DNA of 64,000 bases from Candidatus Peribacteria bacterium RIFCSPHIGHO2_01_FULL_55_13 (lineage in GTDB: Bacteria; Patescibacteriota; Gracilibacteria; Peribacterales; Peribacteraceae): assembly GCA_001788925.1 (NCBI GenBank), contig MFXS01000004.1:50464-114463 (forward strand), given 5' to 3'. The notes below the pieces were generated by a model, which did not search any database, was not told the origin of the DNA, and saw only the letters and a list, made by a program, of their open reading frames with translations. Of this stretch, positions 12,805 to 53,142 are shown piece by piece; position 1 is the stretch's first letter; each line of letters starts with the position of its first letter. The position numbers were made by a program, and so were the translations under genes.

Positions 12805-12830
12805 TGAGGCAAGCCAGTAGGCTTGCCTCA
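12805..12830 (-). terminator. GC-rich hairpin (TGAGGCAAGCC-AGTA-GGCTTGCCTCA), no clear U-tract
   Basis: Perfect 11-bp stem directly 3' of small ORF 12848-13144. Confidence 0.3.
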
Positions 12831-12847
12831 CGATCTCTGGAAATCTG

Positions 12848-13144
12848 TCAGGTCGTCCTCTCCAAGAGGATAACCATCAAAAAGGTGCAGAAACACACAC
12901 TGATACTCGCGCACAGGAAGGTCAGGAATATCCAACCTTGGTATGCATCTAAGTGTTCCTGCTTCAGGGAAAGCTTAAACCTTACCCAGGCATTCCTAGA
13001 CCGTCGGCTTGCGTATCCACCGATCACTAAACTTGCTATCCCAACGAGGGACAGGCAGATCCAAACAAGTGGGCTCATTTCATCACCCCCTTTCCTTCCA
13101 AAGATCGATATCTTGAGTGTATGGATCCCATTACATCTGTCCAT
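12848..13144 (-). CDS. small two-TM membrane protein (hypothetical)
   Basis: ATG overlaps carbamoyltransferase stop (TAATG); two hydrophobic helices; AT-richer than neighbours. Confidence 0.35.
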   Translation of the reverse strand: MDRCNGIHTLKISIFGRKGGDEMSPLVWICLSLVGIASLVIGGYASRRSRNAWVRFKLSLKQEHLDAYQGWIFLTFLCASISVCFCTFLMVILLERTT

Positions 13145-14920: not shown

Positions 14921-14956
14921 GGAATTGAAAATTGAGAATTGAGAATTGAAAATTAA
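14921..14956. repeat. 7-nt-periodic repeat module, single arm (GAATTGA/AAATTGA x5)
   Basis: Tandem heptamers fill the gap between two minus-strand genes; contains the TAA stop of ORF 14953-15180. Confidence 0.85.
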
Positions 14957-15180
14957 AACTGATACCTCATATCAGTGGAGTCTTTGCTCACATCGACCCA
15001 GTACGTGTCTGTTGGAGGCTTCCCCGAAAAGAGGTAAATCATCTTGAGGATGATCGCGTATATGCTGAACACCACAATCCAAATGATTGTGAGGAGAATC
15101 GTACTCATGATGCGCCCGAGCACATGCGAAAAGCGCATCCAGAGGTCATAGAGCTGTTGCAGTGGTTTCGGAAGTTTCAC
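14953..15180 (-). CDS. SxtJ-like small membrane protein
   Basis: 75 aa, LWMRF...hydrophobic helix...YW...MRYQF terminus as I recall for the SxtJ family; adjacent to carbamoyltransferase. Confidence 0.5.
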   Translation of the reverse strand: MKLPKPLQQLYDLWMRFSHVLGRIMSTILLTIIWIVVFSIYAIILKMIYLFSGKPPTDTYWVDVSKDSTDMRYQF

Positions 15181-15186
15181 AGTGTT

Positions 15187-15254
15187 GGATGGCTAAATGG
15201 CTAAATGGTTAGTCCACATCTATAGCATATAACCATTTAGCCATTTAACCATTC
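15187..15254. repeat. 8-nt-periodic repeat module, inverted pair (ATGGCTAA units)
   Basis: Arms 15187-15212 and 15231-15254 nearly perfectly complementary; fills gap between two minus-strand genes. Confidence 0.85.
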
Positions 15255-15260
15255 AGCTCC

Positions 15261-15419
15261 TTAAAAAACCGTGTAGATAAACGGCGCCAGCGGCGACGTC
15301 TGGGCGAAAATCAGGATTAATCCCAAAAGCACGATGATGAGAATGATAGGAAGAAGCCACCACTTCTTGCGCATGCGCATGAAGCGCCAGAGTTCGGTGA
15401 AGATGGAGAGTTTGGACAT
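15261..15419 (-). CDS. DUF5989 (SxtK-like) small membrane protein
   Basis: 52-aa ORF not in track: MSKLSIFTELWRFMRMRKKWWLLPIILIIVLLGLILIFAQTSPLAPFIYTVF; matches the DUF5989 pattern. Confidence 0.6.
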   Translation of the reverse strand: MSKLSIFTELWRFMRMRKKWWLLPIILIIVLLGLILIFAQTSPLAPFIYTVF

Positions 15420-17775: not shown

Positions 17776-17786
17776 GGACCAATTAT

Positions 17787-17855
17787 GAATGCGGAATTCG
17801 GAATTCGGAATTGATTTTTCCTATGATTCCGAATTCCGCATTCCGAATTCCGAAT
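17787..17855. repeat. 7-nt-periodic repeat module, inverted pair (GGAATTC/GGAATGC units)
   Basis: Arms 17787-17812 and 17825-17855; in divergent region between arfB and the TPR membrane protein. Confidence 0.9.
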
Positions 17856-31535: not shown

Positions 31536-32021
31536 ATGCTATTGCGCTACAATGCGCAGGTGTCATCACTCCAGATTATTTACGCCAGTACCAGCGGGCA
31601 TACCGAGTACGTTGTCGGCGTCCTGACAGAGGTTTTAAAAGGAGCGTTGCAGGTTGCAACGTGCAATGCCGAGGCTGCAACGCCGGAGGATCTTTTGAAA
31701 GGAGATAACCTTATTCTTGCCTGCGGCACCTGGAATACCGATGGGCCTGAGGGGCAGCTCAATCCGCATATGAAAGATCTTCTGGTTGGCAGGGCCAAGG
31801 ACATTGATCTTGCCGGGAAGCAGGTTGCCATTATCGCGCTTGGTGATGACCGTTATTACTATACCTGCAGGTCGGGGGAGCACATGCGCAGGTTCGTGCT
31901 CGATCACGGCGGAAAGATCCTCGGAGATGCATTGCTTGTGGTGAATGAGCCGTACGGTCAGGAGGAGAGAGTGAAGAAGTGGGCGGAAGCTCTTCATCAA
32001 AAATTAGCAATTAGGAATTAG
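31536..32021 (+). CDS. flavodoxin
   Basis: IIYASTSGHTEYV FMN-phosphate loop and LACGTWNTDG; track start trimmed to 31536. Confidence 0.8.
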   Translation: MLLRYNAQVSSLQIIYASTSGHTEYVVGVLTEVLKGALQVATCNAEAATPEDLLKGDNLILACGTWNTDGPEGQLNPHMKDLLVGRAKDIDLAGKQVAIIALGDDRYYYTCRSGEHMRRFVLDHGGKILGDALLVVNEPYGQEERVKKWAEALHQKLAIRN

Positions 32022-32035
32022 CAATTAGCAATTTT
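31999..32035. repeat. 7-nt-periodic repeat module (AATTAGC/AATTAGG units), left arm flanking korA
   Basis: Supplies the last codons and TAG stop of flavodoxin; ends at the korA ATG; inverted partner at 33801-33836. Confidence 0.85.
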
Positions 32036-33826
32036 ATGCGAATTTCACTCAAAGTTACCGGCGCGCAAGGTCAAGGAGTCAACTCCATAGGAGAGATGTG
32101 TGCAAAGGGTCTCAAGCGTGCGGGGTACTGCGTGTTTGGATACAAAGAATATATGTCCCTCATCAAAGGCGGACACAGCAGTTATCAGCTTGATGTCGCA
32201 TCCGAAGCCATCGAGAGCAGCGAGACAACGGTGGATATGCTCGTGTGTTTCAATCACCACGGACTCGAGCGTAATGCACTAGAGGTGAAGAGCTGCGGGA
32301 TCATCCTGCACCAGACGCCGCAGTGGAAATACACCAAAGAACAGCAGAAGGTGCTCGAGGATCGTGGCATCCGGACGGTATATCTCCCTTCAGAGGACAT
32401 CCTGAAAAAGCTCAAGGCGAAGCCGATCTTAGGCAACGTGCTCGTCACATCTGTCGTCTGGGCATTGCTTGGGCGCAAGGCTGAAGAACTGAAGGAGCTT
32501 GTGCAGGAACAGTTCGGGCATAAAGGGGAGAAGGTGGTAGCGATGAACTTCCAGTGCATCGAAGAAGGGTTCGCATTCTTGGGAGAGGAAAGTGGAAAGT
32601 GGAAAGTGGAAAGTGGGCTGCGGTTACCCAAGTCTGATCCTTCATGGAAAGATCATCTGCTGATTACCGGAAGCGAGGCGATGGGACTCGGGCTCATCCA
32701 CGCAGGATGCCGTCTGTACTGCGGATATCCGATGACGCCGAGTTCGCCGCTGCTGAGTTACATCGCGGGGATGCAGAACAAGACCGGGATGATCATCAAG
32801 CAGGCGGAAGATGAGATCACGGCCGCGCAGATGATGAGCGGGGCGATGCACATGGGCACACGCGCAGCGACGGGCACCTCGGGCGGGGGATTCGACCTCA
32901 TGACCGAGACGCTTTCACTCGATGCCATCATCGAAAATCCTTCCGTCTTCATTCTCGCACAGCGCCCTGGGCCAGCAACGGGCCTTCCTACATGGACCGC
33001 GCAGGGTGATCTTCTTCTGGCCGTGGGTTCGTCGCACGGGGAATTCGCGCGCTGCGTGATTTCCGTGGCCGATGCACAGGATTGCTACGACCTGATGCCC
33101 GAAGCATTTAACATTGCCGAGAAATATCAGACTCCGGTGATTGTGATGACGGATAAGCAGATCGCAGAAGCGTTATTCACGCAGAAACCGTACGATCAGA
33201 AGAAGGCGAAGCTTGATCGGGGAAATCTGGTGACCGATCCGAAGGCCTTAAAGAAGCTCAAGAGCACGGACCGCTACGATCCGAATGCTAAGGATGGCAT
33301 CTCCCCGCGATGGCTTCCCGGAAGCCTTGCTGCGACCTACTGTGCGCAGGGTGACGAGCATAACGGCGATGGTTCTGTAGATGAAAGCGCGAAGAATGCG
33401 GTGGAGCAGATAGAGAAGAGGATGAAGAAGATGAAAGCGATGGAGCGGGAGACGCCAGAGCCTGTACTGACGGTAATGAGCAATGAGAAATTAGCAGTTA
33501 GCAATGAAGAGCCGGCATTGGATCTTCTTGTGGTGAGCTGGGGGAGTAATAAGGGGGTGATCATGGATGCTTTGAAGGTTGCGGGTTCCGGGTTACGGGT
33601 TGGGTATCTCCATTACACATACCTCTGGCCGATGAAGACAGAGAGGCTGAGCAAGTTGATGAAAAAGTCGAAAAAGACCGTGCTTGTGGAGTGCAACTAT
33701 GGAGGACAACTTGGCATGTTGATTCAGATGGCCGGAGGCCCCACGATCAAAGAAAAGATTTTGAAATATGACGGCAGGCCGTTCTTCGTCGATGAGCTCC
33801 AAAAATTGCTCATTGCTAACTCCTAA
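32036..33826 (+). CDS. 2-oxoacid:ferredoxin oxidoreductase, fused gamma-alpha subunit
   Basis: 596 aa; GAQGQGVNS gamma-domain N-terminus then the alpha domain (GYPMTPSSPLL). Confidence 0.9.
   Translation: MRISLKVTGAQGQGVNSIGEMCAKGLKRAGYCVFGYKEYMSLIKGGHSSYQLDVASEAIESSETTVDMLVCFNHHGLERNALEVKSCGIILHQTPQWKYTKEQQKVLEDRGIRTVYLPSEDILKKLKAKPILGNVLVTSVVWALLGRKAEELKELVQEQFGHKGEKVVAMNFQCIEEGFAFLGEESGKWKVESGLRLPKSDPSWKDHLLITGSEAMGLGLIHAGCRLYCGYPMTPSSPLLSYIAGMQNKTGMIIKQAEDEITAAQMMSGAMHMGTRAATGTSGGGFDLMTETLSLDAIIENPSVFILAQRPGPATGLPTWTAQGDLLLAVGSSHGEFARCVISVADAQDCYDLMPEAFNIAEKYQTPVIVMTDKQIAEALFTQKPYDQKKAKLDRGNLVTDPKALKKLKSTDRYDPNAKDGISPRWLPGSLAATYCAQGDEHNGDGSVDESAKNAVEQIEKRMKKMKAMERETPEPVLTVMSNEKLAVSNEEPALDLLVVSWGSNKGVIMDALKVAGSGLRVGYLHYTYLWPMKTERLSKLMKKSKKTVLVECNYGGQLGMLIQMAGGPTIKEKILKYDGRPFFVDELQKLLIANS
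32585..32617. repeat. 7-nt-periodic repeat module in CDS (GGAAAGT x4)
   Basis: Read as EESGKWKVESG at the gamma/alpha domain junction. Confidence 0.9.
33473..33509. repeat. 7-nt-periodic repeat module in CDS (GCAATGA/GAAATTA/GCAGTTA units)
   Basis: Read as VMSNEKLAVSNEE; same family as the arms flanking the gene. Confidence 0.7.
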
Positions 33827-35212: not shown

Positions 35213-35905
35213 ATGCGGATAGATATCATCACGCTTTTTCCGGCGATGTTCCAAGGTCCTCTAACCGAGAGCATCCTAAAACGTGCCCAGGATGAAGAAA
35301 AACTGGAGATTGTCTTTCATGACCTTCGCCAGTTCGGCCTTGGGAAATATCATCAGGTGGATGACAGCCCGTATGGCGGCGGCGCCGGAATGTTGATGAG
35401 AGCAGATGTAATTGTTCCGGCGTTAGAGAAGATCGCCGAAAGAAAAATGCATAAAGGAAAAAGCAAAAAGCCGTACACGATCTATTTTTCTCCGAGAGGG
35501 AAGAAGTTAAAGCAGGCGAAGGTGGAGAAGCTGGCGAAGAAAGAATGGCTGATCCTACTTTGCGGACATTACGAAGGCATTGATCAGCGTGTCATCGACG
35601 GTGGCTGGTTCGACGGGGCTCACCATAAATGGATCGATGAAGAGATTTCGATCGGGGATTATGTGCTGACCGGCGGCGAGCTTCCAGCAATGGTCCTGAT
35701 CGACGCTGTGGCGCGGCAGATTCCGGGGGTGCTCGGGAAAGAGGCTTCAGTACACGAAGAGAGCTTTTCGGCTTCCCTCGGCCGTAAAAAGGAATATCCG
35801 CATTTCACGCGCCCGGAGGAATTTAGGGGGCTCAAGGTGCCCGATATTCTGCTTTCCGGGCATCACGGGGAGATAGAGAAGTGGAGGAAGGAAAACGTGA
35901 AGTAA
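35213..35905 (+). CDS. trmD: tRNA (guanine37-N1)-methyltransferase
   Basis: MRIDIITLFPAMFQGPL, GHYEGIDQRV and IGDYVLTGGELPAMVLIDAV motifs. Confidence 0.93.
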   Translation: MRIDIITLFPAMFQGPLTESILKRAQDEEKLEIVFHDLRQFGLGKYHQVDDSPYGGGAGMLMRADVIVPALEKIAERKMHKGKSKKPYTIYFSPRGKKLKQAKVEKLAKKEWLILLCGHYEGIDQRVIDGGWFDGAHHKWIDEEISIGDYVLTGGELPAMVLIDAVARQIPGVLGKEASVHEESFSASLGRKKEYPHFTRPEEFRGLKVPDILLSGHHGEIEKWRKENVK

Positions 35906-35935
35906 TTGAAAATTGAAAATGTAAAATTGAAAATT
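35904..35935. repeat. 7-nt-periodic repeat module (AATTGAA units), single arm
   Basis: Runs from the trmD stop to the next ATG; 35904-35933 is identical to 43600-43629 (30/30 nt). Confidence 0.9.
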
Positions 35936-36211
35936 ATGGAAGTTGCTCTCTCAACATTGCAGGCTCAGTTGAGGGAAGCAGGGGAGCTGACCTTCAACGT
36001 GCGTGTTCATCCAGGAGCCCGAAAGACGCAGATCAAAAGCGTGATGGCGGATGGCACGATCAAGATCGACGTTGCTGCTGTACCGGAGGAGGGAAGAGCG
36101 AATGCGGCGCTCGTAAAATTTCTTGCGGAGGAGTTTGGTGTTGCGAAAGGGAATGTGGAGATTGTGGCGGGGGAGACGGGTAGGAAGAAGGTGGTGCGGA
36201 TTGTCGCATAA
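35936..36211 (+). CDS. DUF167 (YggU) family protein
   Basis: VRVHPGARKTQI...EGRANAALVKFLAEEFGV...VEIVAGETGRKKVV. Confidence 0.8.
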   Translation: MEVALSTLQAQLREAGELTFNVRVHPGARKTQIKSVMADGTIKIDVAAVPEEGRANAALVKFLAEEFGVAKGNVEIVAGETGRKKVVRIVA

Positions 36212-37545: not shown

Positions 37546-38280
37546 ATGGCTTCACGCATTCCCATTCTCGGCGTTCCCATTGATCCCGTCACGATGGAGG
37601 AGGCGGTTACGTGCGTTCTGTCGATGCTCCATGGGTTGAAGCAGTGCCATGTGATGACACCGAACAACGAGATGCTCGTGGAGGCAGACCGCAATGCCGC
37701 TTTTAAAAGCGTCCTTCAGAGGAGCGATCTCAATCTCCCGGACAGCACCGGGCTTCTGTGGGCGGCTCGTAGAACAGGGGAGAGGATTCCAGAGCGTGTG
37801 AGCGGGGTGGATTTTGTGGAGAGACTGTGTGGGGCGTTGGATCAGAGTATTCCGGTGTTTTTTTTGGGGGGGAGGGGTGGAGCAGCGGAGAAAGCGGCGG
37901 AGAAATTCGGAATGCGGAATTCAGAATTCGGAATTGCAGGAGTATTTGAAGGATCTCCGAAAGATATGGATGCAGATCAGATCATCCAGGCAGTGAATAC
38001 TTCCGGTGCCAAGCTGCTACTGGTGGCTTACGGTGCGCCGAAGCAGGATCTCTGGATCGCGAAACATCTTTCGAAGATGCCTACGGTGCGTGTCGCGATC
38101 GGCGTCGGTGGTACATTCGATTTTCTGTCAGGAACGATCAAACGGGCGCCACGATGGTTGCGGTCACTGGGACTCGAGTGGTTGTGGAGACTGATCCTTC
38201 AGCCGTGGCGTATCAAAAGAATCTGGACGGCCGTCGTTATATTTCCGATGCTCGTCCTCATGTCAAAAAAGCAGAACTGA
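37546..38280 (+). CDS. WecB/TagA/CpsF family glycosyltransferase
   Basis: ILGVPIDPVTMEEAV, TPNNEML and LGLEWLWRLILQPWR motifs. Confidence 0.85.
   Translation: MASRIPILGVPIDPVTMEEAVTCVLSMLHGLKQCHVMTPNNEMLVEADRNAAFKSVLQRSDLNLPDSTGLLWAARRTGERIPERVSGVDFVERLCGALDQSIPVFFLGGRGGAAEKAAEKFGMRNSEFGIAGVFEGSPKDMDADQIIQAVNTSGAKLLLVAYGAPKQDLWIAKHLSKMPTVRVAIGVGGTFDFLSGTIKRAPRWLRSLGLEWLWRLILQPWRIKRIWTAVVIFPMLVLMSKKQN
37902..37937. repeat. 7-nt-periodic repeat module in CDS (GGAATGC/GGAATTC units)
   Basis: Read as KFGMRNSEFGIAG; same peptide as the guaA insert. Confidence 0.85.
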
Positions 38281-40979: not shown

Positions 40980-42332
<1,353 letters not shown>

Positions 42333-42356: not shown

Positions 42357-43793
42357 ATGCTTCAACGTATCCGCGAGGGGCTTACCTTGGTACTCATTGC
42401 AGTGCTGCCCTTTCATGCGTTTCTCGTTACCGTCGGGACAAAGCTCATCGCGGGGTCAGGGCAATCACCGTTGCCCGTGTTGGCGCTTTGGAAAGAGGCA
42501 GTCCTTGGGATGATTTTGCTTGTTGCTTTGGTGGAGATCTTTCGAGAGTGGAAAACGGAAAGTGGAAAGTGGAAAGTTGATGTTTTCGACATTCTGATCG
42601 TTGGGTTAATTGCCTGGTCGATCATTTTGTATTTCGTTTTCCACTTTCCACTTTCCACTTTCCACTTCGCATTCGGGTTTAAGTATGACTTCCTCCCGCT
42701 CGTTGCATTCCTGATCCTGCGGCGGGTGCCTTGGTCACCGTGGTTCATCAGCACGGCAGTAGCCGTGCTGCTAAGCGTGGGTGCGGTCGTCGCGGTCTAT
42801 GGAATCGCTGCGATATTCCTGCCGATGTCGTGGTTCACGGCGTTGGGATATTCCGATCTTCATTCCTTGTATGTCCCCGGGGGGCCGCTTGCACCGTTCC
42901 AGCAGATTGAATCGATCGGCATCAGAAGAATGCAGTCGGTAATGAGTGGGCCGAATCAGATGGGGCTGTGGCTTTTGATTCCCTGGAGCATTGCGTTCGT
43001 TGATCTTGTTCGCAGGCGGTCGTTTGCTGGTTTGCTGGTTTGCTCGTTGCTCGTTGTAGGCATTCTCCTCTCTTTCTCAAGATCCGCCTGGATCGCGGCA
43101 GCCGTCATCGGCGCAGTCGTTGCATGGAAGCATTTGTCTCGCAAACAGATGGTCATGGCTGCCTCTTTCTTGATCGTTCTTGCCGTTATTGCCGTTGCTG
43201 CATTTCCAAGCATTGTTTTACGTGCCACATCTACCACCGGTCATATTGATCGGCCTCTTCAGGCGTTGCAGATCATGAAAGAACATCCGCTGGGTCTGGG
43301 TCTTGGTTCTGCCGGCCCGGCAAGTAATCGCTTCAGCGATGCCTGTGTGGATCTTCCCGCAGGCAGCGACGCTTCATGGGCGCAGGCGCATTCGCAGCTG
43401 TGTGTGTTTGTCGGCGGCAATCAAGTCCAGCCTCCGCTCCCTTCCGGGGAGCTACGGCCGGCAGGCCAACCTGCGGATCGTACGTGCTCCTGTCCGCTTC
43501 TACCCGAAAATTGGTATCTGCAGATCGGTGTGGAGTTGGGGTGGATAGGTTTTATCCTGTATGTGACGTTGGTGCTGATGCTTTTGAAACGCTTGACGGA
43601 ATTGAAAATTGAAAATGTAAAATTGAAAAAAGAAGAATTTTCAATTTTCAATTTTCAATTTTCAATTGGTCTCGCATTCCTCGGCATCAGTATCGCCGCC
43701 CTCTTCCTGCATGCATGGGAAGACAGCGCGGTGGCGTATACGGTGTGGATTCTTATGGCAATGGGGCTTTTACTGAGAAGGAGGATCCATTGA
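42357..43793 (+). CDS. O-antigen ligase (Wzy_C)-like membrane protein
   Basis: About 11 TM helices, LLSFSRSAW loop motif, 478 aa. Confidence 0.75.
   Translation: MLQRIREGLTLVLIAVLPFHAFLVTVGTKLIAGSGQSPLPVLALWKEAVLGMILLVALVEIFREWKTESGKWKVDVFDILIVGLIAWSIILYFVFHFPLSTFHFAFGFKYDFLPLVAFLILRRVPWSPWFISTAVAVLLSVGAVVAVYGIAAIFLPMSWFTALGYSDLHSLYVPGGPLAPFQQIESIGIRRMQSVMSGPNQMGLWLLIPWSIAFVDLVRRRSFAGLLVCSLLVVGILLSFSRSAWIAAAVIGAVVAWKHLSRKQMVMAASFLIVLAVIAVAAFPSIVLRATSTTGHIDRPLQALQIMKEHPLGLGLGSAGPASNRFSDACVDLPAGSDASWAQAHSQLCVFVGGNQVQPPLPSGELRPAGQPADRTCSCPLLPENWYLQIGVELGWIGFILYVTLVLMLLKRLTELKIENVKLKKEEFSIFNFQFSIGLAFLGISIAALFLHAWEDSAVAYTVWILMAMGLLLRRRIH
42546..42670. repeat. inverted GGAAAGT arrays separated by 57 nt, all in frame
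   Basis: Arms 42546-42579 (EWKTESGKWKVD) and 42637-42670 (FHFPLSTFHFA) bracket a predicted TM helix. Confidence 0.85.
43598..43669. repeat. 7-nt-periodic repeat module, complete hairpin in frame (AATTGAA / TTTTCAA units)
   Basis: Read as ELKIENVKLKKEEFSIFNFQFSIG. Confidence 0.9.
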
Positions 43794-44282
43794 GGTCAGA
43801 AGATGCTCATCACCATTTCCAGCAGCCATGATCGTGGATTTCCGCTCCCCAACATCCGAAGGGTCATTCAGCCACTCTGTAACATCGTCTCCGGTAAACT
43901 GTTCATTCGGAGGATACACCTGCTTCATGCCTGTTACGGAACCAGGCGCCTTCTGATGTGCTGTGGAAAGAACGACAATTGCCTCATTGTGTATTTTGCG
44001 GACAGCAAGAGTGAGCTGGGTGAGATTGTTCAAGCTCTGCGTGAGCTTTTCATCTCCATCAACGATGACAGACGAAATCTCGCCTTCTTTTCGTACGTGT
44101 ATTCGCTTGTCTCTTTGCAATAAGTTATTTGTTTGTAACCCCGTATACAGCCCTGGATTTTTTGTTTCGGGGAGGACAATATCGCCATTTTGAACTTCTG
44201 CATGCAATTCCATAAGTACAGTATGTTCTCGCTGCGGCACCCTTTTGTCAATTCCCTCTGGAAAGGGGTAGGCTTTGCCCAT
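43770..44282 (-). CDS. hypothetical protein (AT-richer orphan); start uncertain
   Basis: 170-aa ORF filling the 487-nt gap; its ATG overlaps the guaA ATG (CCATGG); M24 (44213) is an alternative start. Confidence 0.4.
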   Translation of the reverse strand: MGKAYPFPEGIDKRVPQREHTVLMELHAEVQNGDIVLPETKNPGLYTGLQTNNLLQRDKRIHVRKEGEISSVIVDGDEKLTQSLNNLTQLTLAVRKIHNEAIVVLSTAHQKAPGSVTGMKQVYPPNEQFTGDDVTEWLNDPSDVGERKSTIMAAGNGDEHLLTSMDPPSQ

Positions 44283-46107
44283 GGAAGGTTCCGTTCATCC
44301 AAAGTCCATCGCTATTCTCGATTTCGGAGGCCAGTATGCGCACCTGATCGCCAGCCGCATCCGGCGTTTTGGGTATCCCTCCTATATCTACCCGTGTGAC
44401 ATCGATCCCACAGAATTAAGGGGAGTTGCTGGCATCATTCTCTCTGGTGGGCCACAGAGCGTGTACGACAAGGGGAGTCCGCAGGCGGATCCGAAGATTT
44501 TTGATCTTGGTATTCCGGTTCTGGGACTTTGCTACGGGCATCAGTGGCTGGCGCATGCGCTTGGCGGCCGAGTGGCTGCTGCGAAGGTTAAGGAATATGG
44601 ATCTACGCTGGTGAAGCGAGCGGAAAAAGAAAAAAGCAAAAAGGAAAATGATTTGTTTGAAGGATTTCCGGAGCAGTGGACGGTCTGGATGTCGCATGGC
44701 GACGAAGTGAGTGAGCTTCCGCCGGGATTTATCCGCACTGCAAGTACGAAAGATTGCATCAACGCGGCGATGGTGAATCCGGAGAGAAACATTTTCGGCA
44801 TCCAGTGGCATAACGAGGTGACGCACACGGAGCATGGCATGGAAATCCTCCGGAGGTTTGCGGAATTCTGTAAGCCTGCGCAGTGGTCGATTAAAAGTTA
44901 TGCCGATCATGTGGGTGCGCAGATCAAAGAAGAGGTGGGTGGCAAGAAAGTCTTTATGCTGGTCTCCGGAGGGGTGGATTCCACGGTCGCGTTCACGCTT
45001 CTGAACAAGGTCCTTGGCGCAGATCGTGTACAGGGGCTCCTCGTCGATACGGGATTGATGCGCAAAGGAGAGGTGAAGATGATTGAAGAAGCGTTTGCAA
45101 AGCTCAAGATCAAAAATCTGCACATCGAAGATGCATCAGAGGAATTTTTTGCGAATCTGAAAGGCGTTTATGGACCGGAAGAGAAGAGGAAGATCATTGG
45201 GAATACATTTTTAGAGGTGCAGAAGAGGGTGTTTGAAGAAATGCGGAATTCGGAATTCGGAATTCGGAATGAGGTGTGCTTGTTGGGTCAAGGGACCATT
45301 TATCCAGACACGATTGAAACCGGAGGGACCAAGCACGCGGACAAGATCAAGACGCATCACAACCGTGTGGAGGCGATCCAGAAAATGATTGAGCAGGGAC
45401 TCGTGATCGAGCCGCTCAAGGAACTCTATAAAGATGAAGTGCGTATTCTGGGCGAAGAACTGGGATTGCCGCATGCACTCGTATGGCGGCATCCATTTCC
45501 GGGGCCGGGACTTGGCGTTCGAATTCTTTGTGCGAAGAATTCGAACGAATTGAAAATTGAAAATGGAAAATTGAAAATTGAGTTCCAACACACGGTGTTG
45601 CCCGTGCAATCGGTGGGTGTGCAAGGTGACGGAAGAACCTATCGGCATGCGATCGTTGTTTTCGGTAAAGATCCCTCGAAGATTACTACGGAGCATCTGG
45701 AGCTTGCGACGCAGGTGCCTAACAGTAATCGCGAAATCAATCGTGTGCTTCTTTGCACGTCTCAATCTGAGCGCACAGAATTTTCGGTGACGCCGGGGGC
45801 GATCACCCGCGAGCGCGCAGACCTTCTCCGTGAAGCAGATGACATCGTCCTTCAGGAAATGCGAAACGCAGGTCTCTATGAAAAAATCTGGCAGTTCCCA
45901 GTCGTGTTACTTCCTCTCGGGAAGGGGAAAGGACAGTCGATTGTCCTTCGCCCTATCTCTTCCACCGACGCGATGACAGCGAATGCATTTGTATTGCCTC
46001 CCGAAGTCATCCAAACGATCACCAAAAAGATCATGCAATTGCCGGGCATCGATGCGGTTTTCTATGACCTCACCAATAAGCCGCCGGCGACTATAGAGTG
46101 GGAGTAG
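44281..46107 (+). CDS. guaA: GMP synthase (glutamine-hydrolysing), long form
   Basis: ILDFGGQYAHLIASRIR, LGLCYGHQ, SGGVDSTV and GQGTIYPD motifs. Confidence 0.93.
   Translation: MEGSVHPKSIAILDFGGQYAHLIASRIRRFGYPSYIYPCDIDPTELRGVAGIILSGGPQSVYDKGSPQADPKIFDLGIPVLGLCYGHQWLAHALGGRVAAAKVKEYGSTLVKRAEKEKSKKENDLFEGFPEQWTVWMSHGDEVSELPPGFIRTASTKDCINAAMVNPERNIFGIQWHNEVTHTEHGMEILRRFAEFCKPAQWSIKSYADHVGAQIKEEVGGKKVFMLVSGGVDSTVAFTLLNKVLGADRVQGLLVDTGLMRKGEVKMIEEAFAKLKIKNLHIEDASEEFFANLKGVYGPEEKRKIIGNTFLEVQKRVFEEMRNSEFGIRNEVCLLGQGTIYPDTIETGGTKHADKIKTHHNRVEAIQKMIEQGLVIEPLKELYKDEVRILGEELGLPHALVWRHPFPGPGLGVRILCAKNSNELKIENGKLKIEFQHTVLPVQSVGVQGDGRTYRHAIVVFGKDPSKITTEHLELATQVPNSNREINRVLLCTSQSERTEFSVTPGAITRERADLLREADDIVLQEMRNAGLYEKIWQFPVVLLPLGKGKGQSIVLRPISSTDAMTANAFVLPPEVIQTITKKIMQLPGIDAVFYDLTNKPPATIEWE
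44620..44650. repeat. 7-nt-periodic A-rich repeat module in CDS
   Basis: Read as RAEKEKSKKEN in the GATase domain. Confidence 0.6.
45241..45273. repeat. 7-nt-periodic repeat module in CDS (GGAATTC x3 plus variants)
   Basis: Read as MRNSEFGIRNE just upstream of the conserved GQGTIYPD. Confidence 0.9.
45537..45582. repeat. 7-nt-periodic repeat module in CDS (AATTGAA units, third unit AAATGGA)
   Basis: Read as NSNELKIENGKLKIE. Confidence 0.9.
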
Positions 46108-46164: not shown

Positions 46165-46773
46165 ATGGTTGCGCCCAAGGCACTGACGAGCGACGAGGTA
46201 CGGCAGCTGGTAATGGAGGCCCAGAGCGGGGACACGGGGGCGTTTAGCAAGCTCTACGATTTTTATTTTCCACAGGTATTCCGCTACTGCGCATTTCGAG
46301 CTCCTGCGGAAGTCGCCGAGGATCTTGTGGCGGAAGTTTTTGTGAAAGCGTGGGAGAAACTGCACACCTACAAAGTGCAGAAGGACATTCCCTTCGGTGC
46401 ATGGCTCTTTCGTGTGGCGCGCTACACGGTGATCGACGCCTATCGCACCAGCCGCACGTGGGAAGATCTCGATGAGACACTCGAAGATCCCGATACGCTC
46501 AACTCCGCAGACGGGATGCTCCGCCAGAAAGAGGTGGTCCGTGTGGTGCGTAAAGCGCTGAACGCATTGCCGCGCCGGTACCGTGATGTGCTGGTGCTCC
46601 ACTACATTGCGGGCCTTCCCAGCGACGAGGTGGCACGCGTTTTACGGCTGAGCCAGGGGGCTTCCCGCATCCTCAAGTTCCGGGCGCTCAAAAAGCTTGA
46701 ACAAGAATTGCCGTCAGAATACCGGGAAGGGCGTAACAAGGCTGCTTTGGCATCGTTTTCACCATTGCAATGA
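46165..46773 (+). CDS. ECF-type RNA polymerase sigma-70 factor
   Basis: Region 2 (FSKLYDFYFPQVFRYCAFR) and region 4 (LPRRYRDVLVLHYIAGLPSDEVARVL). Confidence 0.88.
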   Translation: MVAPKALTSDEVRQLVMEAQSGDTGAFSKLYDFYFPQVFRYCAFRAPAEVAEDLVAEVFVKAWEKLHTYKVQKDIPFGAWLFRVARYTVIDAYRTSRTWEDLDETLEDPDTLNSADGMLRQKEVVRVVRKALNALPRRYRDVLVLHYIAGLPSDEVARVLRLSQGASRILKFRALKKLEQELPSEYREGRNKAALASFSPLQ

Positions 46774-48680
46774 GGCTTGAACAGCGTCTCCAGAGGCTTT
46801 CCCAAGACATCACACCTTCTGGGGCTATCAAAAGTCGCATATTCGATCGTATTGAGCAGAGAATCGGCGCTCCGGAGGTGCTCCGAATGGCGGCCAAAGA
46901 GATGACGCCGAGGGCTGCCGTCCGTGACCGCGTGTGGGACAAGGTAGCGCAGGTTGTCACACAGTCTCCCGTTGCCTTCCTCGATCGCGTCCGTGGCGCG
47001 CTGCTTCCTCCCGTCGAACTTTCCAAAGATCTCTGGCAGTCCTTCATCCTGCCGCGGCTCCAGCCGCAGCAGGTTGCCGCCCGTTCCTATCGTGGTATTG
47101 CGTGGGTCACGGCCGTGGCGATTCTTATCGTGACCGTTCGCGTCAGTCCGAGCCTCTTCTTCGCCGCTCCCACCGCCGCCGAGTCGGCTGTGACGCTTCT
47201 GCCTACGCGTGGAGCAGTCACGGTGAAGATCGCGGGAGTCATACAGGAAGTCGATCAGGAAGTGGCCCTTGTGCCGGGGATGCAGATCCGCACGGGCGAC
47301 AGCGAGGCGAGCATCCTTCTGCGCGATGACGGCGTGATTCGCATGGACCGCAACACCGTCGTCACGCTCCACGATCTCACGGAGCGCCTAGAACCGGCGC
47401 CTGAGATTCTGCCCACGCTCACGCTCGAACAGGGACGCATCTGGGTGCAGGGGCTCGTGCCGGCCACACTTAGGGGCATCACACTCGCTACTGCCGAAGG
47501 CCATATTACGGTGAATGAAGGCAGCGTCTCGCTTGCCCGGGAAGATCTCCTGACGGTCGAAGTCTATAACCGCACCGCCACGCTCCTGCGCGAGGACCGT
47601 GAAACGCGGCTCATCACGGGAGACCGCATCCAGCTCTGGGCTGGAAGCGTCCCGCTCATCCGTCATATCCCGCTCTCCGCCTATGATGACAGCTGGGTAA
47701 GCCAGAACATCGGCCGCGACGCCGTGCATCGCAAGGATATCGCCCAGCAGCAGCAGGATCGCAAAGTGGCGCGCGCAGGCATCCTCCCGACATCCAAACT
47801 CTACGCCGTGAAGCGTGCCGCGGAAGCCGTGGACGTGATGCTCACCTTCGACGGTCGCACGCGCGTCGAGAAGCAGATCGCCTACGCAGGCGTCCGTCTC
47901 GACGAGGCGGCCGCTCTCATTGAAGAGGGGGCGGTGGAAGCCGTGGAGGCACCGTTGCAGGAATACCGCAGGGCGCTTGTTGCCCTTGCGGGAGAGTCCA
48001 CTGACGGGACCGAAGCACAGTTCCTTCTGCAGCAGGCTGTGTCCGAGGATTCCGCCGAGATCGCGGCGGCTTCCGTGGGCGACAACAACTATCTTCTGAA
48101 AAAGACCGTGCTCGAGGCCTACTCTGAGCTTCCGGGACAGGACGGGGAAATCATCGAAGCGGCGCTCCTTGTGGACGGGCTCTCCACGCTCGCAGAGGCC
48201 GCAGAAGCGGGAGACCAGATGCAGGTTACCGGCGCCTGGGATGCACTGGAGCCGTATCTGAAAGCCATCGAAGAGAATCCTGAACTTGCCGAAGCGGTAG
48301 AAGCAAAGGCCCTTTTGAAGCGTTTCGCGCTGGCCGTCCAGGACACGGAGGGCTTTGATCCGGATCTGATCGCCGCGTCGGAGGAATTCCTGCCTGAGGA
48401 GCCGGTGACGGTAGTGGCCCACCTCACGGACGAACAGGTGCTCGCGATCGCCTCGAATATCAAGGAACGTATTTTCACGCAGTACCGCATGCCCCAGTCC
48501 CGCAGCAACGTACTTCTCGCCGAACTGCGGAAACTGAAAGGCAATGCGGATGAAGGCCGCATCCTGCGCGCGCTCTATCACGCAATGCCGGAAGATACCG
48601 AGCTCCGCGTACCCGTGCGCCGCTCCATCACGCAGCTGAAGTGGTCGGTGGTGGCGGGGGAAGAAGGGGATTCACTGTAG
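46770..48680 (+). CDS. anti-sigma-like membrane protein (FecR-like plus DUF5667-like helical domain)
   Basis: ATGA overlap with the sigma gene; TM helix; FecR-like IRTGDSEASILLRDDGVIRMDRNTVVTL; long helical C-terminus. Confidence 0.6.
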   Translation: MRLEQRLQRLSQDITPSGAIKSRIFDRIEQRIGAPEVLRMAAKEMTPRAAVRDRVWDKVAQVVTQSPVAFLDRVRGALLPPVELSKDLWQSFILPRLQPQQVAARSYRGIAWVTAVAILIVTVRVSPSLFFAAPTAAESAVTLLPTRGAVTVKIAGVIQEVDQEVALVPGMQIRTGDSEASILLRDDGVIRMDRNTVVTLHDLTERLEPAPEILPTLTLEQGRIWVQGLVPATLRGITLATAEGHITVNEGSVSLAREDLLTVEVYNRTATLLREDRETRLITGDRIQLWAGSVPLIRHIPLSAYDDSWVSQNIGRDAVHRKDIAQQQQDRKVARAGILPTSKLYAVKRAAEAVDVMLTFDGRTRVEKQIAYAGVRLDEAAALIEEGAVEAVEAPLQEYRRALVALAGESTDGTEAQFLLQQAVSEDSAEIAAASVGDNNYLLKKTVLEAYSELPGQDGEIIEAALLVDGLSTLAEAAEAGDQMQVTGAWDALEPYLKAIEENPELAEAVEAKALLKRFALAVQDTEGFDPDLIAASEEFLPEEPVTVVAHLTDEQVLAIASNIKERIFTQYRMPQSRSNVLLAELRKLKGNADEGRILRALYHAMPEDTELRVPVRRSITQLKWSVVAGEEGDSL

Positions 48681-48686
48681 GAAAAG

Positions 48687-48770
48687 CACCAAATCCCAAT
48701 GACCAAACAGTGACAAGAAAAAAATAACCAGGCAATATTTTGGTGATTGCCTGGTCATTGGTACTTGGTT
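48687..48770. repeat. nested inverted repeat (CCAAATC/CCAATGA units plus AACCAGGCAAT hairpin)
   Basis: Fills the gap between convergent stops 48680 and 48773. Confidence 0.75.
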
Positions 48771-48772
48771 AT

Positions 48773-49615
48773 TTACCGAATCCTGTACGCATTACTGCAA
48801 TGCGTTGCATCATTGTCTGTACACAAATAGATCCACTGTGTGGGGCCCAGCAGCGGCTGCATGCCCCGGATATTCACCCGCGCTGTGCCGTGATCAACGG
48901 CGTCGCAGGTAAAGGGCTCATCATCATAGGAAACTTTCTGCGTCTCTCCGGCGCCGTTCCAACGGACGATCTCTGTGCATCCTTCTCCCTTGGAATATGT
49001 GACGGAGAGATAGGCATTGCGTGCGATGGTGGCGGAATGGATGGTGATAGCTTCCTGCGCGGCTCCATGCGTACCGCCTCCGGATGTCACTGCGATTGGC
49101 TGGCTGCAGTACTGACGGGCGTTCGTGCAGACCTGCACGAGCTGGCCTTCAGTCACCGCCGGCTGGATTCCCTCGAGTCGCAGGTGCGCGGAGAGTTCTC
49201 TTGCATTCAGGGAGCATGGCACGCCGCCGATGACATTGAGGCGCTGGAATTCCTGGTTTGCGGCTCCCGTCATCCAGAGGGAGACACATTCGGCTTCCGG
49301 GAGAGCGTAGGCGACATCCAAATGATCCATTGTCAGCTGTGCGCTTCGAAGTGTGATCGCATCTACACCCCCCGTTGATTCTCTCTGTTCCCTCACGGCC
49401 GGCACTGCCGTGCGGATGCTTTCGCGCAAGGCACGCCAGTCATTGCGTGCGCGGCGAACGACTGCCCGAGGGGCCATGCGGTACGTACCGCCGTTTTCGG
49501 AAACGGCTCCGCTCAGGCTCGATGTGGAAACACTCGCGGCGTAGACACTGAGGGCCGCGAGAAGTACGCCGCTTCCAAGAACAAGGCGTGAAGCTTTCTT
49601 TTTGAGAAGACTCAT
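48773..49615 (-). CDS. secreted hypothetical protein
   Basis: Signal peptide MSLLKKKASRLVLGSGVLLAALSVYA; Cys-containing beta-rich composition. Confidence 0.55.
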   Translation of the reverse strand: MSLLKKKASRLVLGSGVLLAALSVYAASVSTSSLSGAVSENGGTYRMAPRAVVRRARNDWRALRESIRTAVPAVREQRESTGGVDAITLRSAQLTMDHLDVAYALPEAECVSLWMTGAANQEFQRLNVIGGVPCSLNARELSAHLRLEGIQPAVTEGQLVQVCTNARQYCSQPIAVTSGGGTHGAAQEAITIHSATIARNAYLSVTYSKGEGCTEIVRWNGAGETQKVSYDDEPFTCDAVDHGTARVNIRGMQPLLGPTQWIYLCTDNDATHCSNAYRIR

Positions 49616-52488: not shown

Positions 52489-52557
52489 TTCGGAATGAGG
52501 AATGCGGAATGCGGAATTGCTGCAACATCATAATTCCGAATTCCGAATTCCGCATTC
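52488..52557. repeat. 7-nt-periodic repeat module, inverted pair (GGAATGA/GGAATGC / GAATTCC units)
   Basis: Exactly fills the gap between the dnaQ-like stop (52558) and the def start (52488). Confidence 0.9.
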
Positions 52558-53142
52558 TTAATTTCTTGCCAATTGCTTCACTGCCGCCCGCTTCCGCAAT
52601 TCGTCCAGCGACCGGATATTGCCCTTTTCCATCATCTTCAAGAATGCCTGTGCCGTGAGGAGCACATCAGGAAGTGCGCGGTGGCGGTCTGTGGGGAGAA
52701 CAAGGCCGCAGCGCAGCGCCAGGACATCAAGGTTGTGGCGGAACTCCTGGGGGAAAATCGACCGGCTGAGGACCAGACTGCAGAGGCATTCGGGGAGATC
52801 GACGTAGCCCCAACAGAAGTCCTTTTCCACCTGCAAAAATCCCATGTCGAAGTTGGCGTTGTGGGCGAGAAGGGTCGATCCTTCGGCGAAGGTCAGAAAC
52901 TGCGGTAGTACCTGGTCGATGGTCGGAGCATTGGCCACCATCGTGTCATCAATCTTGTTCACCTGTTTGGCTTCCCACGGGATCAATCGCTCGGGATTTA
53001 CATACGTCTGAAAGGCCGTTTCTCCCTGAATAACTCCGCCTTCAATGCGAACGGCGGCGATCTCGATGATCCGGTGACCGCGCTTCGGATCGAGACCGGT
53101 CGTCTCGACGTCGAACACGGTGAAAGGAGGGAGGAAAGACAT
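52558..53142 (-). CDS. DnaQ-like 3'-5' exonuclease
   Basis: FDVETTGLDP (Exo I), AHNANFDMGFL (Exo II) and HRALPDV (Exo III) motifs. Confidence 0.85.
   Translation of the reverse strand: MSFLPPFTVFDVETTGLDPKRGHRIIEIAAVRIEGGVIQGETAFQTYVNPERLIPWEAKQVNKIDDTMVANAPTIDQVLPQFLTFAEGSTLLAHNANFDMGFLQVEKDFCWGYVDLPECLCSLVLSRSIFPQEFRHNLDVLALRCGLVLPTDRHRALPDVLLTAQAFLKMMEKGNIRSLDELRKRAAVKQLARN

Follow-up and report, generated by a model that had tools for sequence, protein, structure and literature searches.

Heptanucleotide arrays in three loops of a Peribacteria GMP synthase, probably long-lived and rewritten in place

The window analysed here is a stretch of 64,000 nucleotides of contig MFXS01000004.1 from Candidatus Peribacteria bacterium RIFCSPHIGHO2_01_FULL_55_13, a CPR organism. 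A single open reading frame of 608–610 amino acids encodes the glutamine-hydrolysing GMP synthase GuaA and contains three repeat modules in frame. Its start is ATG 44281, with TTG 44275 as a possible alternative. NCBI annotates the protein as 'hypothetical protein'. The GATase, ATP-pyrophosphatase and C-terminal dimerisation domains are present with their motifs, including the GLCYGHQ cysteine, the SGGVDS P-loop and the KPPATIEWE end in invariant columns. Homologues carry the Pfam domains GATase, NAD_synthase and GMP_synt_C, PDB sequences match with E-values down to ~1e-112, and fold comparison matches GMP synthases, human GMPS (2vxo) ranking first. The window GuaA is a long form with an extra sub-domain (aa 417–505), which is absent from the short bacterial-type GuaA sequences in the PDB (~500–540 aa). 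The features of the gene are listed below.

44281–46107, + strand: guaA, glutamine-hydrolysing GMP synthase (from the open reading frame, Pfam domains of homologues, PDB sequence matches and fold match)
44620–44652 (array core 44624–44648), + strand: module 1 at site 1, AAAAAGN in 3.6 copies, read as RAEKEKSKKEN, aa 113–123
45238–45270 (array 45240–45270), + strand: module 2 at site 2, AATGCGG, three AATTCGG and AAT, read as MRNSEFGIRNE, aa ~320–330
45516–45547, + strand: perfect hairpin abutting module 3, 13 bp with a 6-nt loop, 100% complementary
45548–45581, + strand: module 3 at site 3, AATTGAA in 4.9 copies, read as ELKIENGKLKIE, aa ~423–434
Module-junction peptides predicted for GuaA: ENDLFEGFPEQWTVWMSHGDEVSELPPGFIR, NSEFGIR, NEVCLLGQGTIYPDTIETGGTK, IEFQHTVLPVQSVGVQGDGR

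Tandem Repeats Finder (TRF) reports each of the three modules as a period-7 array. Module 1 is the weakest (3.6 copies, 88% matches, score 36); modules 2 and 3 comprise 4.4 copies with 95% matches and 4.9 copies with 92% matches, respectively. The modules are thus three members of one element class with a 7-nt unit, about 4.5 copies and a length of 31–34 nt. A sequence-only reading of the window had placed them correctly, in frame within the one GuaA frame, as three separate families; the unit and length common to all three were overlooked. Since 7 and 3 are coprime, the arrays encode a peptide repeat of seven residues per 21 nt and are therefore read through as segments of 10–11 mostly hydrophilic residues. 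Judged from the continuity of the frame, the modules are probably translated as parts of an intact GuaA, as had been proposed. The cluster member recorded on 11 contigs carries identical modules.

The modules occupy three surface loops or linkers. Site 1 is a β-hairpin loop of the amidotransferase domain; in the AlphaFold model it comprises aa 114–131, flanked by a strand on either side, and pLDDT falls below 50 at aa 118–120. Site 2 is the helix-to-strand loop in front of the QGTIYPD strand, and in the model module 2 spans the end of helix 299–323 and the loop to strand 333–336. Module 2 does not directly precede GQGTIYPD, as had been stated; four residues (VCLL) lie in between. Site 3 is the linker into the extra C-terminal sub-domain, modelled as a loop (aa 421–435) ahead of strand 436–439. 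The predicted positions in loops, not in the catalytic core, and the orthologue alignment, in which the segments are not conserved at the protein level, agree with the sequence-only reading, and we infer no role of the modules in GuaA catalysis. Among PDB GuaA sequences, length varies at sites 1 and 2.

The proposal that the modules overwrite linkers rather than add length is only partly borne out. At site 3 the median linker is ~30 aa with or without an array, so no length is gained. Module 1 adds 21 nt relative to the related locus L003 (L numbers denote related loci) and 7 aa relative to the nearest array-free relatives. At site 2, module 2 replaces the GLxxEDGW segment conserved in Peribacteria with a net gain of 4 aa (12 nt).

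All three guaA modules are solo direct arrays, with neither a palindrome nor terminal inverted repeats. The hairpin next to module 3 encodes the invariant GVRIL with its left arm and KNSNE with its right arm (RNA fold −25.3 kcal/mol, z = −3.2). It is absent from the L004 orthologue.

The window contains about 31–35 period-7 arrays in total, and their density in this genome is about 5 per 10 kb. Our own scan found 31 period-7 runs versus 0–1 in shuffles; other periods (3–6 and 8–12) gave 0–3 runs each. Pattern searches of the window allowing up to 3 mismatches returned 17 matches of the GGAATTC family (0.06 expected), four of the AATTGAA family (0 expected) and two of the A-rich family (0 expected). 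Arrays related to the guaA modules are the following.

14923–14958, + strand: solo AATTGAR array adjoining a gene start, no hairpin
17782–17855 (arms 17787/17826), no strand assigned: inverted GGAATTC-family pair (hairpin), family of module 2
35904–35935, + strand: solo AATTGAA array, family of module 3, exactly filling the spacer from the trmD stop to the next start
37904–37935, + strand: GGAATTC-family array in a WecG/TagA-type glycosyltransferase gene, translated FGMRNSEFGI
41703–41733, + strand: AAAGGAA array, A-rich family of module 1, in the UDP-GlcNAc 2-epimerase gene, translated AKAKRKKEKGKN
43600–43667, + strand: inverted AATTGAA pair, family of module 3, in a Wzy_C (O-antigen-ligase-like) gene, both arms translated, ELKIENVKLKKEEFSIFNFQFSI
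52492–52563 (arms 52492/52532), no strand assigned: inverted GGAATKC-family pair (hairpin), family of module 2, between two minus-strand genes

The module families had been located in hairpins at 17787, 52488, 14921 and 35904. Their recurrence is borne out, as are the hairpins 17787/17826 and 52492/52532; the arrays at 14923–14958 and 35904–35935 are solo. The arms of the hairpins mirror each other's variant units. The variant units of module 2 follow the order seen in the arms at 17787 and 52532, and the third unit is the variant one in module 3 and in the arrays at 35904 and 43600 alike. Genes with arrays include those for GuaA, WecB, WecG, TrmD, a pyruvate:ferredoxin oxidoreductase (POR) subunit, an ADP-forming acetyl-CoA synthetase-like protein and the Wzy-like protein. 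An Rfam scan of the whole window matched one tRNA and nothing at the arrays. Among 40 window ORFs scanned against Pfam there was no transposase, integrase or reverse transcriptase, and no gene for a Y1 (RAYT-type) transposase.

A period-7 excess is also present in most of 41 related loci. The 42 loci (711 kb) contain 212 arrays, 146 of them (~69%) fully inside ORFs, and 99 of the latter are in ORFs with homologues. The length mode is 31–33 nt in coding and intergenic DNA alike. There are 119 canonical units, the unit families are genome-specific and array density differs sharply among related genomes. About 25 of the 78 intergenic arrays lie within 3 nt of a start or stop codon, and some provide GGAG just 5' of ATG. 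[quoted passage not shown] Units with a stop, for example AATTGAA, vary where it would fall in frame: in module 3 the third unit is AATGGAA, which turns TGA into TGG, and in the Wzy gene the change is to GTA. As read from these sequences, selection removes versions with an in-frame stop codon.

In the 42 Peribacteria genomes all guaA arrays lie at the same three sites, with more than 20 different units; site 1 is occupied in nine genomes, site 2 in six and site 3 in 19. The contigs JAHFJN010000001.1 and CAZHLW010000001.1 are array-bearing, and the 1.39-Mb contig CAVZXD010000001.1 has no array at its guaA locus. This class-wide recurrence at exactly three sites was overlooked earlier, as was the rewriting of old positions described below. 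The arrays recur in independent assemblies from many studies, and the same site carries an array in some close relatives and none in others. Lag-7 identity at array-bearing sites is 0.50–0.64 versus ~0.27 gene-wide. Array-free linkers were considered as decayed arrays and show no clear period-7 residue (lag-7 0.29–0.33 versus 0.25–0.33 at other lags). The poorly conserved FecR-like neighbour has no array in 37 genomes, and therefore a rule of 'any permissive loop' is too simple. Its GC content of 62%, versus 51% in guaA, may be the reason.

Comparison of orthologous sites indicates what happens to an array over time. At site 1, arrays of equal length and register are present in six genomes with the units AAAATTG, AAGAATK, CAAATCG and AAAAAGN; module 1 is orthologous to, and in register with, stronger arrays of different units in L001, L004, L039, L036 and L002. 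Lag-7 identity within these arrays is 0.69–1.0, compared with 0.61 between genomes. In a total of 166 comparisons of an array with its orthologue over seven genomes, the orthologous segment also has period 7 in 100; of these, 83 are gap-free and 59 are less than 70% identical. Mean identity is 0.62 for the arrays and 0.72 for their flanks. In the Wzy gene, alignment of the window with L001 pairs GGAAAGT with GAGAATT and the inverted partner ACTTTCC with AATTCTC, with no gaps. The L001 orthologue of the pair at 43600–43667 has AATTGAG/CTCAATT on both arms. By this comparison the array positions are old, with sister genomes keeping the place and mostly the length and register while carrying another unit, and the arms of inverted pairs change together. 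The frame of an essential gene survives because such rewriting preserves length and register. On this comparative evidence the modules are best regarded as long-lived 'pads', old positions rewritten in place, and not as three recent independent insertions.

Within populations, no case of rewriting was observed. GuaA is recorded without change on 11 contigs, cluster members of guaA show no strain-level length variants, and the contig from a second sample differs by substitutions only. The sole variant, confined to the assembly L042, is a cluster of four substitutions at the module 1 edge and could be an assembly error; no match to a donor of this cluster was found in the window.

The AATTGAA array extends beyond Peribacteria. 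Arrays of 31–34 nt are also found in Bacteroidota-type and viral contigs; the metagenome contigs with such an array number at least 120, are unrelated and come from many habitats, and nine viral contigs carry one. Of 140 AATTGAA arrays, 100 have this length. Within Peribacteria, module 3 and its site-3 counterparts in L004, L006 and L028 are 90–100% identical at a gene-wide nucleotide identity of 64–77%, the synonymous sites being near saturation between these genomes. Around 107 AATTGAA arrays, whose starting phase is biased by the search pattern, there are no conserved flanks or termini, no target consensus and no target duplication. A literature search did not find the array sequence in a relevant context.

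Taken together, the arrays are probably long-lived occupants of tolerant loops that are rewritten in place through replication misalignment or template switching and filtered by selection for the frame and against stop codons. Transient slippage by one unit would homogenise the units within an array, fold-back copying would keep inverted arms complementary, and copying of arrays between loci would disperse unit families through a genome. Arrays would be retained only in loops that accept any hydrophilic filler. The 13-bp hairpin formed with the invariant GVRIL arm at module 3, absent from L004, and the mirrored variant units point to template switching; the genome-specific families and the shared order of variant units at unlinked arrays point to copying between loci. 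Simple slippage does not predict the sharp length of 31–34 nt, also seen in metagenome contigs, the 90–100% identity of AATTGAA at site 3 at near-saturated divergence, or identical units in Bacteroidota-type and viral contigs. Fixed length, site-3 identity and cross-lineage units suggest a sequence-specific constraint or machinery outside the model, and the cross-lineage conservation of the AATTGAA array is left unaccounted for by it. A speculative and rather unlikely candidate is a 'heptad writer', a host, mobile or viral activity common to Peribacteria, Bacteroidota-type organisms and viruses that overwrites a patch of ~32 nt with length and register preserved, even in essential genes. Such a patch corresponds to 4.5 heptads, or three helical turns. 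If real, the heptad writer would be the smallest known copy-and-overwrite genetic element and would account for the excess of four-unit heptanucleotide repeats in bacteria.

About as doubtful is an enzyme-driven, ultra-small mobile element, with ~32-nt arrays or inverted pairs copied or rewritten by a dedicated trans-acting protein and the guaA modules as copies in tolerant loops. Such an element would resemble REP/REPIN sequences with RAYT transposases, or the MITE-like in-frame Rickettsia palindromic elements (RPE), which provide a precedent (PMC10969869). Whole arrays with equal variant-unit order at unlinked loci, the quantised length of 31–34 nt, the frequent inverted pairs and the sharp differences in density among related genomes are consistent with it; so are the conservation of AATTGAA far above synonymous-site identity and its presence in nine viral contigs and in no fewer than 120 metagenome contigs of diverse habitats. 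However, the 40 window ORFs include no transposase, reverse transcriptase or integrase, and AATTGAA arrays lack conserved termini, a target consensus and a target duplication. The net change at occupied sites is 0, +12 or +21 nt and never the element length (25–34 nt), more than 100 different units exist, and orthologous sites that hold length and register while the unit differs resemble rewriting rather than excision and re-insertion. Selection for nucleic-acid signals is less likely still. The arrays would then be heptads bound by a DNA- or RNA-binding protein, intercistronic translation spacers rich in A/U and with stops in three frames, or sequences similar to uptake signals that molecular drive has spread, with spill-over into coding sequence such as guaA. 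The nucleotide conservation of module 3 across deep divergence, the constant array length, the joint change of inverted arms and the intergenic arrays within 3 nt of start or stop codons (~25 of 78, some giving GGAG before ATG) would fit, and similar proposals exist for TAACTGA repeats upstream of start codons (PMC4679880). But 119 canonical units fit no single binding specificity, the same guaA site is occupied in some close relatives and empty in others, array-free linkers have no residual periodicity, no Rfam family matches, and copies in the middle of enzyme genes are left unexplained.

The remaining explanations concern the protein or the data. It is very improbable that the modules are adaptive insertions through which Peribacteria GuaA acquired some new property, for example an interaction surface or improved solubility. 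The class uses the three sites repeatedly and the peptides are charged and hydrophilic, but amino-acid conservation is absent there, many relatives are array-free, and what is conserved is the nucleotide periodicity with synonymous positions, not the peptide. Model confidence at the sites is low, and the same arrays are also intergenic. Even less credible is a phase-variation switch in which gain or loss of one unit turns guaA off and on. The translated heptanucleotide repeats of E. coli K1 neuO (PMC13001214) provide a precedent, and a 7-nt unit does shift the frame unless units change in threes, but the arrays have only ~4.5 imperfect copies, lie mid-gene and not at the 5' end, and belong to a housekeeping gene whose cluster member has the same three modules on 11 contigs. 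Full-length alleles with a frameshift were absent; a single read-level fragment (P0123) is frameshifted, with a 1-nt change within an A run. An artefact of assembly or of compositional bias in linkers is the least probable explanation. The A-rich sequence and weak periodicity of module 1 (TRF score 36) speak for it, but this module is in register with strong arrays of five relatives, the excess is specific to period 7, and independent assemblies from many studies have arrays at the same sites. Two further ideas were set aside: diversity-generating retroelements, since the changes between units show no adenine specificity, and integration in the manner of CRISPR spacers, since there is no repeat context.

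Long-lived arrays rewritten in place partly resemble known repeats. Quasipalindrome or transient-misalignment (template-switch) mutagenesis produces templated, length-preserving clusters of substitutions that perfect inverted or direct repeats. The hairpin at 45516–45547, the mirrored variants of hairpin arms and the in-register unit change are alike in kind; to our knowledge, the process is known for rare clusters of point mutations and not for the upkeep of hundreds of fixed-length arrays. The neuO gene carries a long, perfect tract of variable copy number near its 5' end that acts as an on/off switch. As in guaA, all three frames of a 7-nt unit are used, giving a 7-residue peptide repeat within an enzyme. 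PMC13001214 is the source for this translated heptanucleotide repeat in a phase-variable O-acetyltransferase. The guaA arrays, in contrast, are short, imperfect and mid-gene, and no copy-number variation between strains that would switch the frame is seen on 11 contigs. RPE likewise place translated repeat DNA in unrelated housekeeping enzymes at fold-compatible positions (PMC10969869), and both include hairpin-forming copies; here, the Wzy gene translates both arms. In contrast to RPE, which are palindromic, ~150 bp long and encode a conserved peptide, the Peribacteria arrays are tandem with period 7, 31–34 nt long and without a conserved peptide, and they largely replace resident sequence instead of adding their full length. 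Of the marks of MITEs and RPE, in-frame presence in housekeeping genes at tolerant places is found; defined palindromic ends, target duplication and full-length insertion are not. In Borg extrachromosomal elements, the units of intragenic repeats are multiples of three nucleotides long and their copy number varies, whereas the Peribacteria arrays have a 7-nt unit and a constant length of about 32 nt. The likeness lies in pervasive, fast-evolving tandem repeats in and between genes that give low-complexity or disordered protein segments (PMC9879509).

The closest relatives are the bacterial heptanucleotide repeats, which are over-represented, with polymerase slippage as the proposed cause (PMC4679880, PMC4692102, both citing Mrazek 2007). 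In the accounts of Mrazek 2007 given there, examples include cyanobacterial STRR, GGGAATC in Xanthomonas, GGGGAYT in Nostoc and TAACTGA in Beggiatoaceae. Shared with the Peribacteria arrays are head-to-tail 7-nt units dispersed over the genome, a strong period-7 excess, frequent inverted pairs, a preference for ~4 units (PMC4692102) and frequent positions next to start or stop codons (PMC4679880). Thus head-to-tail units, over-representation and the ~4-unit preference are all found in the Peribacteria arrays, and a mainly intergenic location is not. The repeats of Xanthomonas, Nostoc and Beggiatoaceae are mostly intergenic and ORF-poor, whereas 146 of 212 Peribacteria arrays are in ORFs, including those of conserved enzymes; this intragenic share of ~69% is unusual. 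Known heptanucleotide-repeat genomes have one or few units, compared with 119 canonical units here. The A/T-rich Peribacteria units are unable to form G-quadruplexes, which therefore cannot account for their four-unit preference. Recurrence at orthologous sites with in-place rewriting of the unit is not described in the heptanucleotide-repeat literature examined, and a literature search gave no report of such repeats in Peribacteria or Peregrinibacteria.

Heptanucleotide repeats, recognised since 2007 as the long simple repeats with the strongest over-representation in bacteria, have no established cause or function. Any explanation must meet a fixed length of ~32 nt independent of G-quadruplexes, persisting positions with in-register rewriting of the unit, the joint change of arms, and an AATTGAA array conserved far beyond neutral expectation and common to distant lineages. 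Arrays of this kind create lineage-specific loops able to mislead annotation, with GuaA as an example, and naturally mark the places where conserved enzymes permit insertions. Essential enzymes are able to carry non-triplet repeats in the long term, against the usual divisible-by-three rule for genic repeats.

The guaA gene is a single ORF on the + strand (44275/44281–46107, 608–610 aa) and plainly encodes a GMP synthase; the NCBI label is 'hypothetical protein'. The closest protein matches belong to Candidatus Peribacteria and Peregrinibacteria (Candidate Phyla Radiation), and a cluster member with all three modules is on record for 11 contigs. In an alignment of 17 relatives the catalytic and binding motifs are invariant. 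The enzyme is of the long form. Bacterial-type GuaA sequences of the PDB lack an equivalent of residues 417–505, which represent an extra C-terminal sub-domain as in eukaryotic GMP synthases; the best fold match of the predicted model is human GMPS (2vxo). In nearly all Peribacteria loci guaA is followed 3′ by genes for an ECF-type sigma factor and a FecR/DUF5667 protein (window 46165–48680).

The three repeat segments that the sequence-only reading had placed inside guaA are real, and Tandem Repeats Finder returns each as an array of a 7-nt unit. All three are one kind of object, heptad arrays, a point which that reading overlooked.

Repeat modules of guaA (Tandem Repeats Finder) and their place in the AlphaFold2 model
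44624–44648, + strand: module 1, AAAAAGA, 3.6 copies, 88% matches; aa 113–123, in the loop aa 114–131 between two strands, pLDDT <50 at aa 118–120
45240–45270, + strand: module 2, AATTCGG, 4.4 copies, 95% matches; aa ~320–330, end of helix 299–323 and loop to strand 333–336
45548–45581, + strand: module 3, AATTGAA, 4.9 copies, 92% matches; aa ~423–434, in the loop aa 421–435 ahead of strand 436–439

The model was calculated from a 17-sequence alignment and has a mean pLDDT of 79.5, with means of 59 over a 10-residue block of module 2 and 58 over the block of module 3. The modules are located in loops of this model, not in the catalytic core, and are not conserved family-wide at the protein level. 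At sites 1 and 2, the positions of modules 1 and 2 in orthologues, the length also differs among solved GMP synthases (PDB sequences). That the three modules occupy permissive loops of GuaA and are read through is well supported. The proposal that they overwrite linkers instead of adding length holds in part. At site 3 the linker has a median of ~30 aa with or without an array, and a related Peribacteria locus (L034) carries an array at site 1 with zero length change. Compared with its nearest array-free relatives, however, GuaA of the window has 7 aa (21 nt, three units) more at site 1; at its site 2 the array takes the place of the Peribacteria-conserved GLxxEDGW segment, with a net gain of 4 aa. 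Array length is never matched by the net length change at occupied guaA sites. In the sister genome (L001, 6160–6190) a 15-nt insert, TCCTTCGACGGGCTC, splits the site-3 AATTGAA array; this shows one route of array decay into ordinary linker.

A scan for periodic runs found 31 period-7 runs in the 64-kb window versus 0–1 in shuffles; the other periods from 3 to 12 gave 0–3 runs each. The module families recur in the window far above chance (17 matches versus 0.06 expected, 4 versus 0 and 2 versus 0). Four recurrences had been read as intergenic hairpins. Those at 17782–17855 and 52494–52563 are indeed inverted array pairs, whereas those at 14923–14958 and 35904–35935 are solo arrays. Overall the finding is real and its earlier interpretation is largely right. 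At least eight window genes have translated arrays, encoding GuaA, UDP-GlcNAc 2-epimerase, a WecG-type glycosyltransferase, TrmD, a pyruvate:ferredoxin oxidoreductase subunit, an ADP-forming acetyl-CoA synthetase-like protein, a TPR protein and a Wzy-like membrane protein.

Within the window, the glycosyltransferase and sugar-modification gene cluster (1–14900) holds a single array pair (1997–2064), compared with more than 30 arrays in the remaining 49 kb. The inverted pair at 15175–15266 has an 8-nt unit, not 7 nt (ATGGCTAA / TTAGCCAT), and a few further period-8 and period-9 arrays are present in related loci. The Wzy_C (O-antigen-ligase-like) gene contains two inverted array pairs (42546–42674 and 43600–43667) with both arms translated, the A-rich arms into charged and the T-rich arms into hydrophobic stretches (FSIFNFQFSI, FHFPLSTFHF). 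The first pair flanks 60 nt coding for a hydrophobic, possibly membrane-spanning, stretch. Intergenic arrays often start within a stop codon or stop 0–3 nt short of a start codon (window 32002–32036 and 35903–35939; L001 3680–3714; 6374–6408 of the related locus L035). About 25 of 78 intergenic arrays are no more than 3 nt from a gene end, and some boundary arrays provide GGAG or AGGA immediately 5′ of ATG.

Most of 41 guaA loci fetched from Peribacteria genomes carry period-7 arrays; other periods do not behave in this way. A total of 212 arrays was counted in 711 kb, 146 of them wholly within ORFs. Their length has its mode at 31–33 nt in coding and intergenic DNA alike. Distinct canonical units number 119, and each genome has its own unit families. 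In guaA, counted over 42 genomes, all arrays are confined to sites 1, 2 and 3 (9, 6 and 19 genomes, respectively) and comprise more than 20 different units. Arrays are also found in the Wzy-like gene at recurrent sites (22/33 genomes) and in the UDP-GlcNAc 2-epimerase gene (11/30). None was found in the sigma factor gene next to guaA (0/41) or in the FecR-like gene (0/37), though the latter is poorly conserved (~40% identity); its GC content is 62% versus 51% for guaA. Membership of the modules in a pervasive class of ~32-nt heptad arrays is well supported.

The array units are shaped by selection on reading frame. Since 21 nt of an array reads every trinucleotide of the 7-nt unit as a codon, a stop-containing unit blocks read-through on that strand. 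Of 99 coding arrays, 19 have a stop in the consensus unit on the sense strand and 36 have one on the antisense strand; for intergenic arrays the count is 24 of 56 strand-instances. In stop-containing units such as AATTGAA, a variant unit is present where the in-frame stop would occur: TGA is replaced by TGG in module 3 and by GTA in the Wzy array.

At site 1, six related genomes have length and register in common with different units (AAAATTG, AAGAATK, CAAATCG or AAAAAGN). Lag-7 identity inside each array is 0.69–1.0, versus 0.61 between genomes. When the window is aligned globally with L001 (77–88% nucleotide identity), every window array has an array or array wreck at the orthologous place, usually ungapped and with a different unit. 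In the Wzy gene GGAAAGT of the window corresponds to GAGAATT of L001, and the inverted partner 60 nt off reads ACTTTCC and AATTCTC, respectively, so that the arms are complementary within each genome. Likewise, the AATTGAA/TTCAATT hairpin of the window is AATTGAG/CTCAATT in L001. Of 166 comparisons of an array with its orthologue, drawn from seven genomes, 100 have a period-7 segment on the orthologous side as well; 83 of these pairs are ungapped and 59 share less than 70% identity. Arrays have a mean identity of 0.62, compared with 0.72 for flanks. Array-free linkers at the guaA sites showed no clear leftover periodicity. The view that array positions are old, and that the unit at each of them is rewritten in place with time, is well supported. 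Such behaviour is concerted evolution that keeps length and register, and for this reason the frame of an essential gene survives the rewriting.

Where L001 has a clean AAAAACC / GGTTTTT array pair (9846–9910), the window has its decayed counterpart, an imperfect 40-nt inverted repeat 3′ of the FecR-like gene (window 48680–48777). A contig of the window's species from a different sample (L042, 1006–1019, corresponding to window 44612–44625) differs from the window by four substitutions clustered in 14 nt where module 1 has its 5′ edge; apart from the contig end, the remaining ~3 kb contain only one more. A search of the window for a donor found none; the cluster may reflect templated mutation or an error of assembly.

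Several features speak for copying between loci and for template switching as the origin of the arrays. Module 2 consists of AATGCGG and then AATTCGG units, a variant order shared with the arms of the hairpins at 17787 and 52532, and the third unit is the variant position in module 3 and in the arrays at 35904 and 43600. Hairpin arms mirror each other's variant units. Both Wzy pairs belong to one family in L001 and to two families in the window. Immediately 5′ of module 3 there is a perfect 13-bp hairpin (45516–45528 / 45535–45547) with a 6-nt loop, the left arm coding for the invariant GVRIL and the right arm for the linker start, KNSNE. The orthologue of the related locus L004 does not have this hairpin, which looks like a template-switch (quasipalindrome) event. 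Fold-back and misaligned copying in replication probably generate the arrays, and these features are the traces that such copying should leave.

This model does not account for the conservation of the AATTGAA array at site 3 or for its spread across lineages. The array is 90–100% identical among the window and three Peribacteria loci (L004, L006 and L028), whose nucleotide identity is 64–77% over guaA and 43–51% for third codon positions at identical residues. At least 120 stretches with the AATTGAA 31-mer were found when metagenome contigs were scanned. The matches listed come from contigs whose names indicate gut, marine and other habitats, with G+C from 0.21 to 0.65; they hold further period-7 arrays with Peribacteria units (e.g. 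AATGGAA, GGAAAGT, AATGAAG, AATTAAG), and 100 of their 140 arrays are 31–34 nt long. Nine IMG/VR viral contigs (L163–L171) have the exact AATTGAA array. One of them, L166, contains 13 period-7 arrays within 8.4 kb; the viral matches include a giant-virus bin (26% G+C). The SusC/SusD pair is a hallmark of Bacteroidota; contig L087 has such a pair and is therefore Bacteroidota-like. In translation, its arrays (251–320, 4274–4340, 5883–5950) form part of lipoprotein signal peptides (MKYSVFSIQYSVF...), and those of contig L155 (3731–4486) lie within transmembrane segments of a P-type ATPase. The fixed length of ~32 nt, together with a unit conserved in distant lineages, suggests a sequence-specific constraint or machinery. 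Around AATTGAA arrays there was neither a flank consensus nor a target duplication, and no mobile-element gene was found among 40 ORFs of the window.

Like Rickettsia palindromic elements (PMC10969869), the arrays are translated inside housekeeping enzymes, but they lack the defined ends, target duplication and full-length insertion of an element of that type. Phase variation of the neuO type was ruled against, as copy-number variation was not seen in 11 contig records. Among long simple repeats, those of heptanucleotides are reported to be the most over-represented in many bacteria, and slippage of the polymerase has been proposed to cause them (Mrazek 2007, as cited in PMC4679880 and PMC4692102). 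In Xanthomonas and Nostoc a four-unit preference is ascribed to G-quadruplex formation (PMC4692102), and in Beggiatoaceae TAACTGA repeats are found just upstream of start codons (PMC4679880). The Peribacteria arrays match bacterial heptanucleotide repeats in period, copy number, inverted pairs and gene-boundary placement. Unlike these, they are mostly intragenic and their units are highly diverse; unlike the repeats of Xanthomonas and Nostoc, their A/T-rich units are unable to form G-quadruplexes. A literature search found no description of such repeats in Peribacteria.
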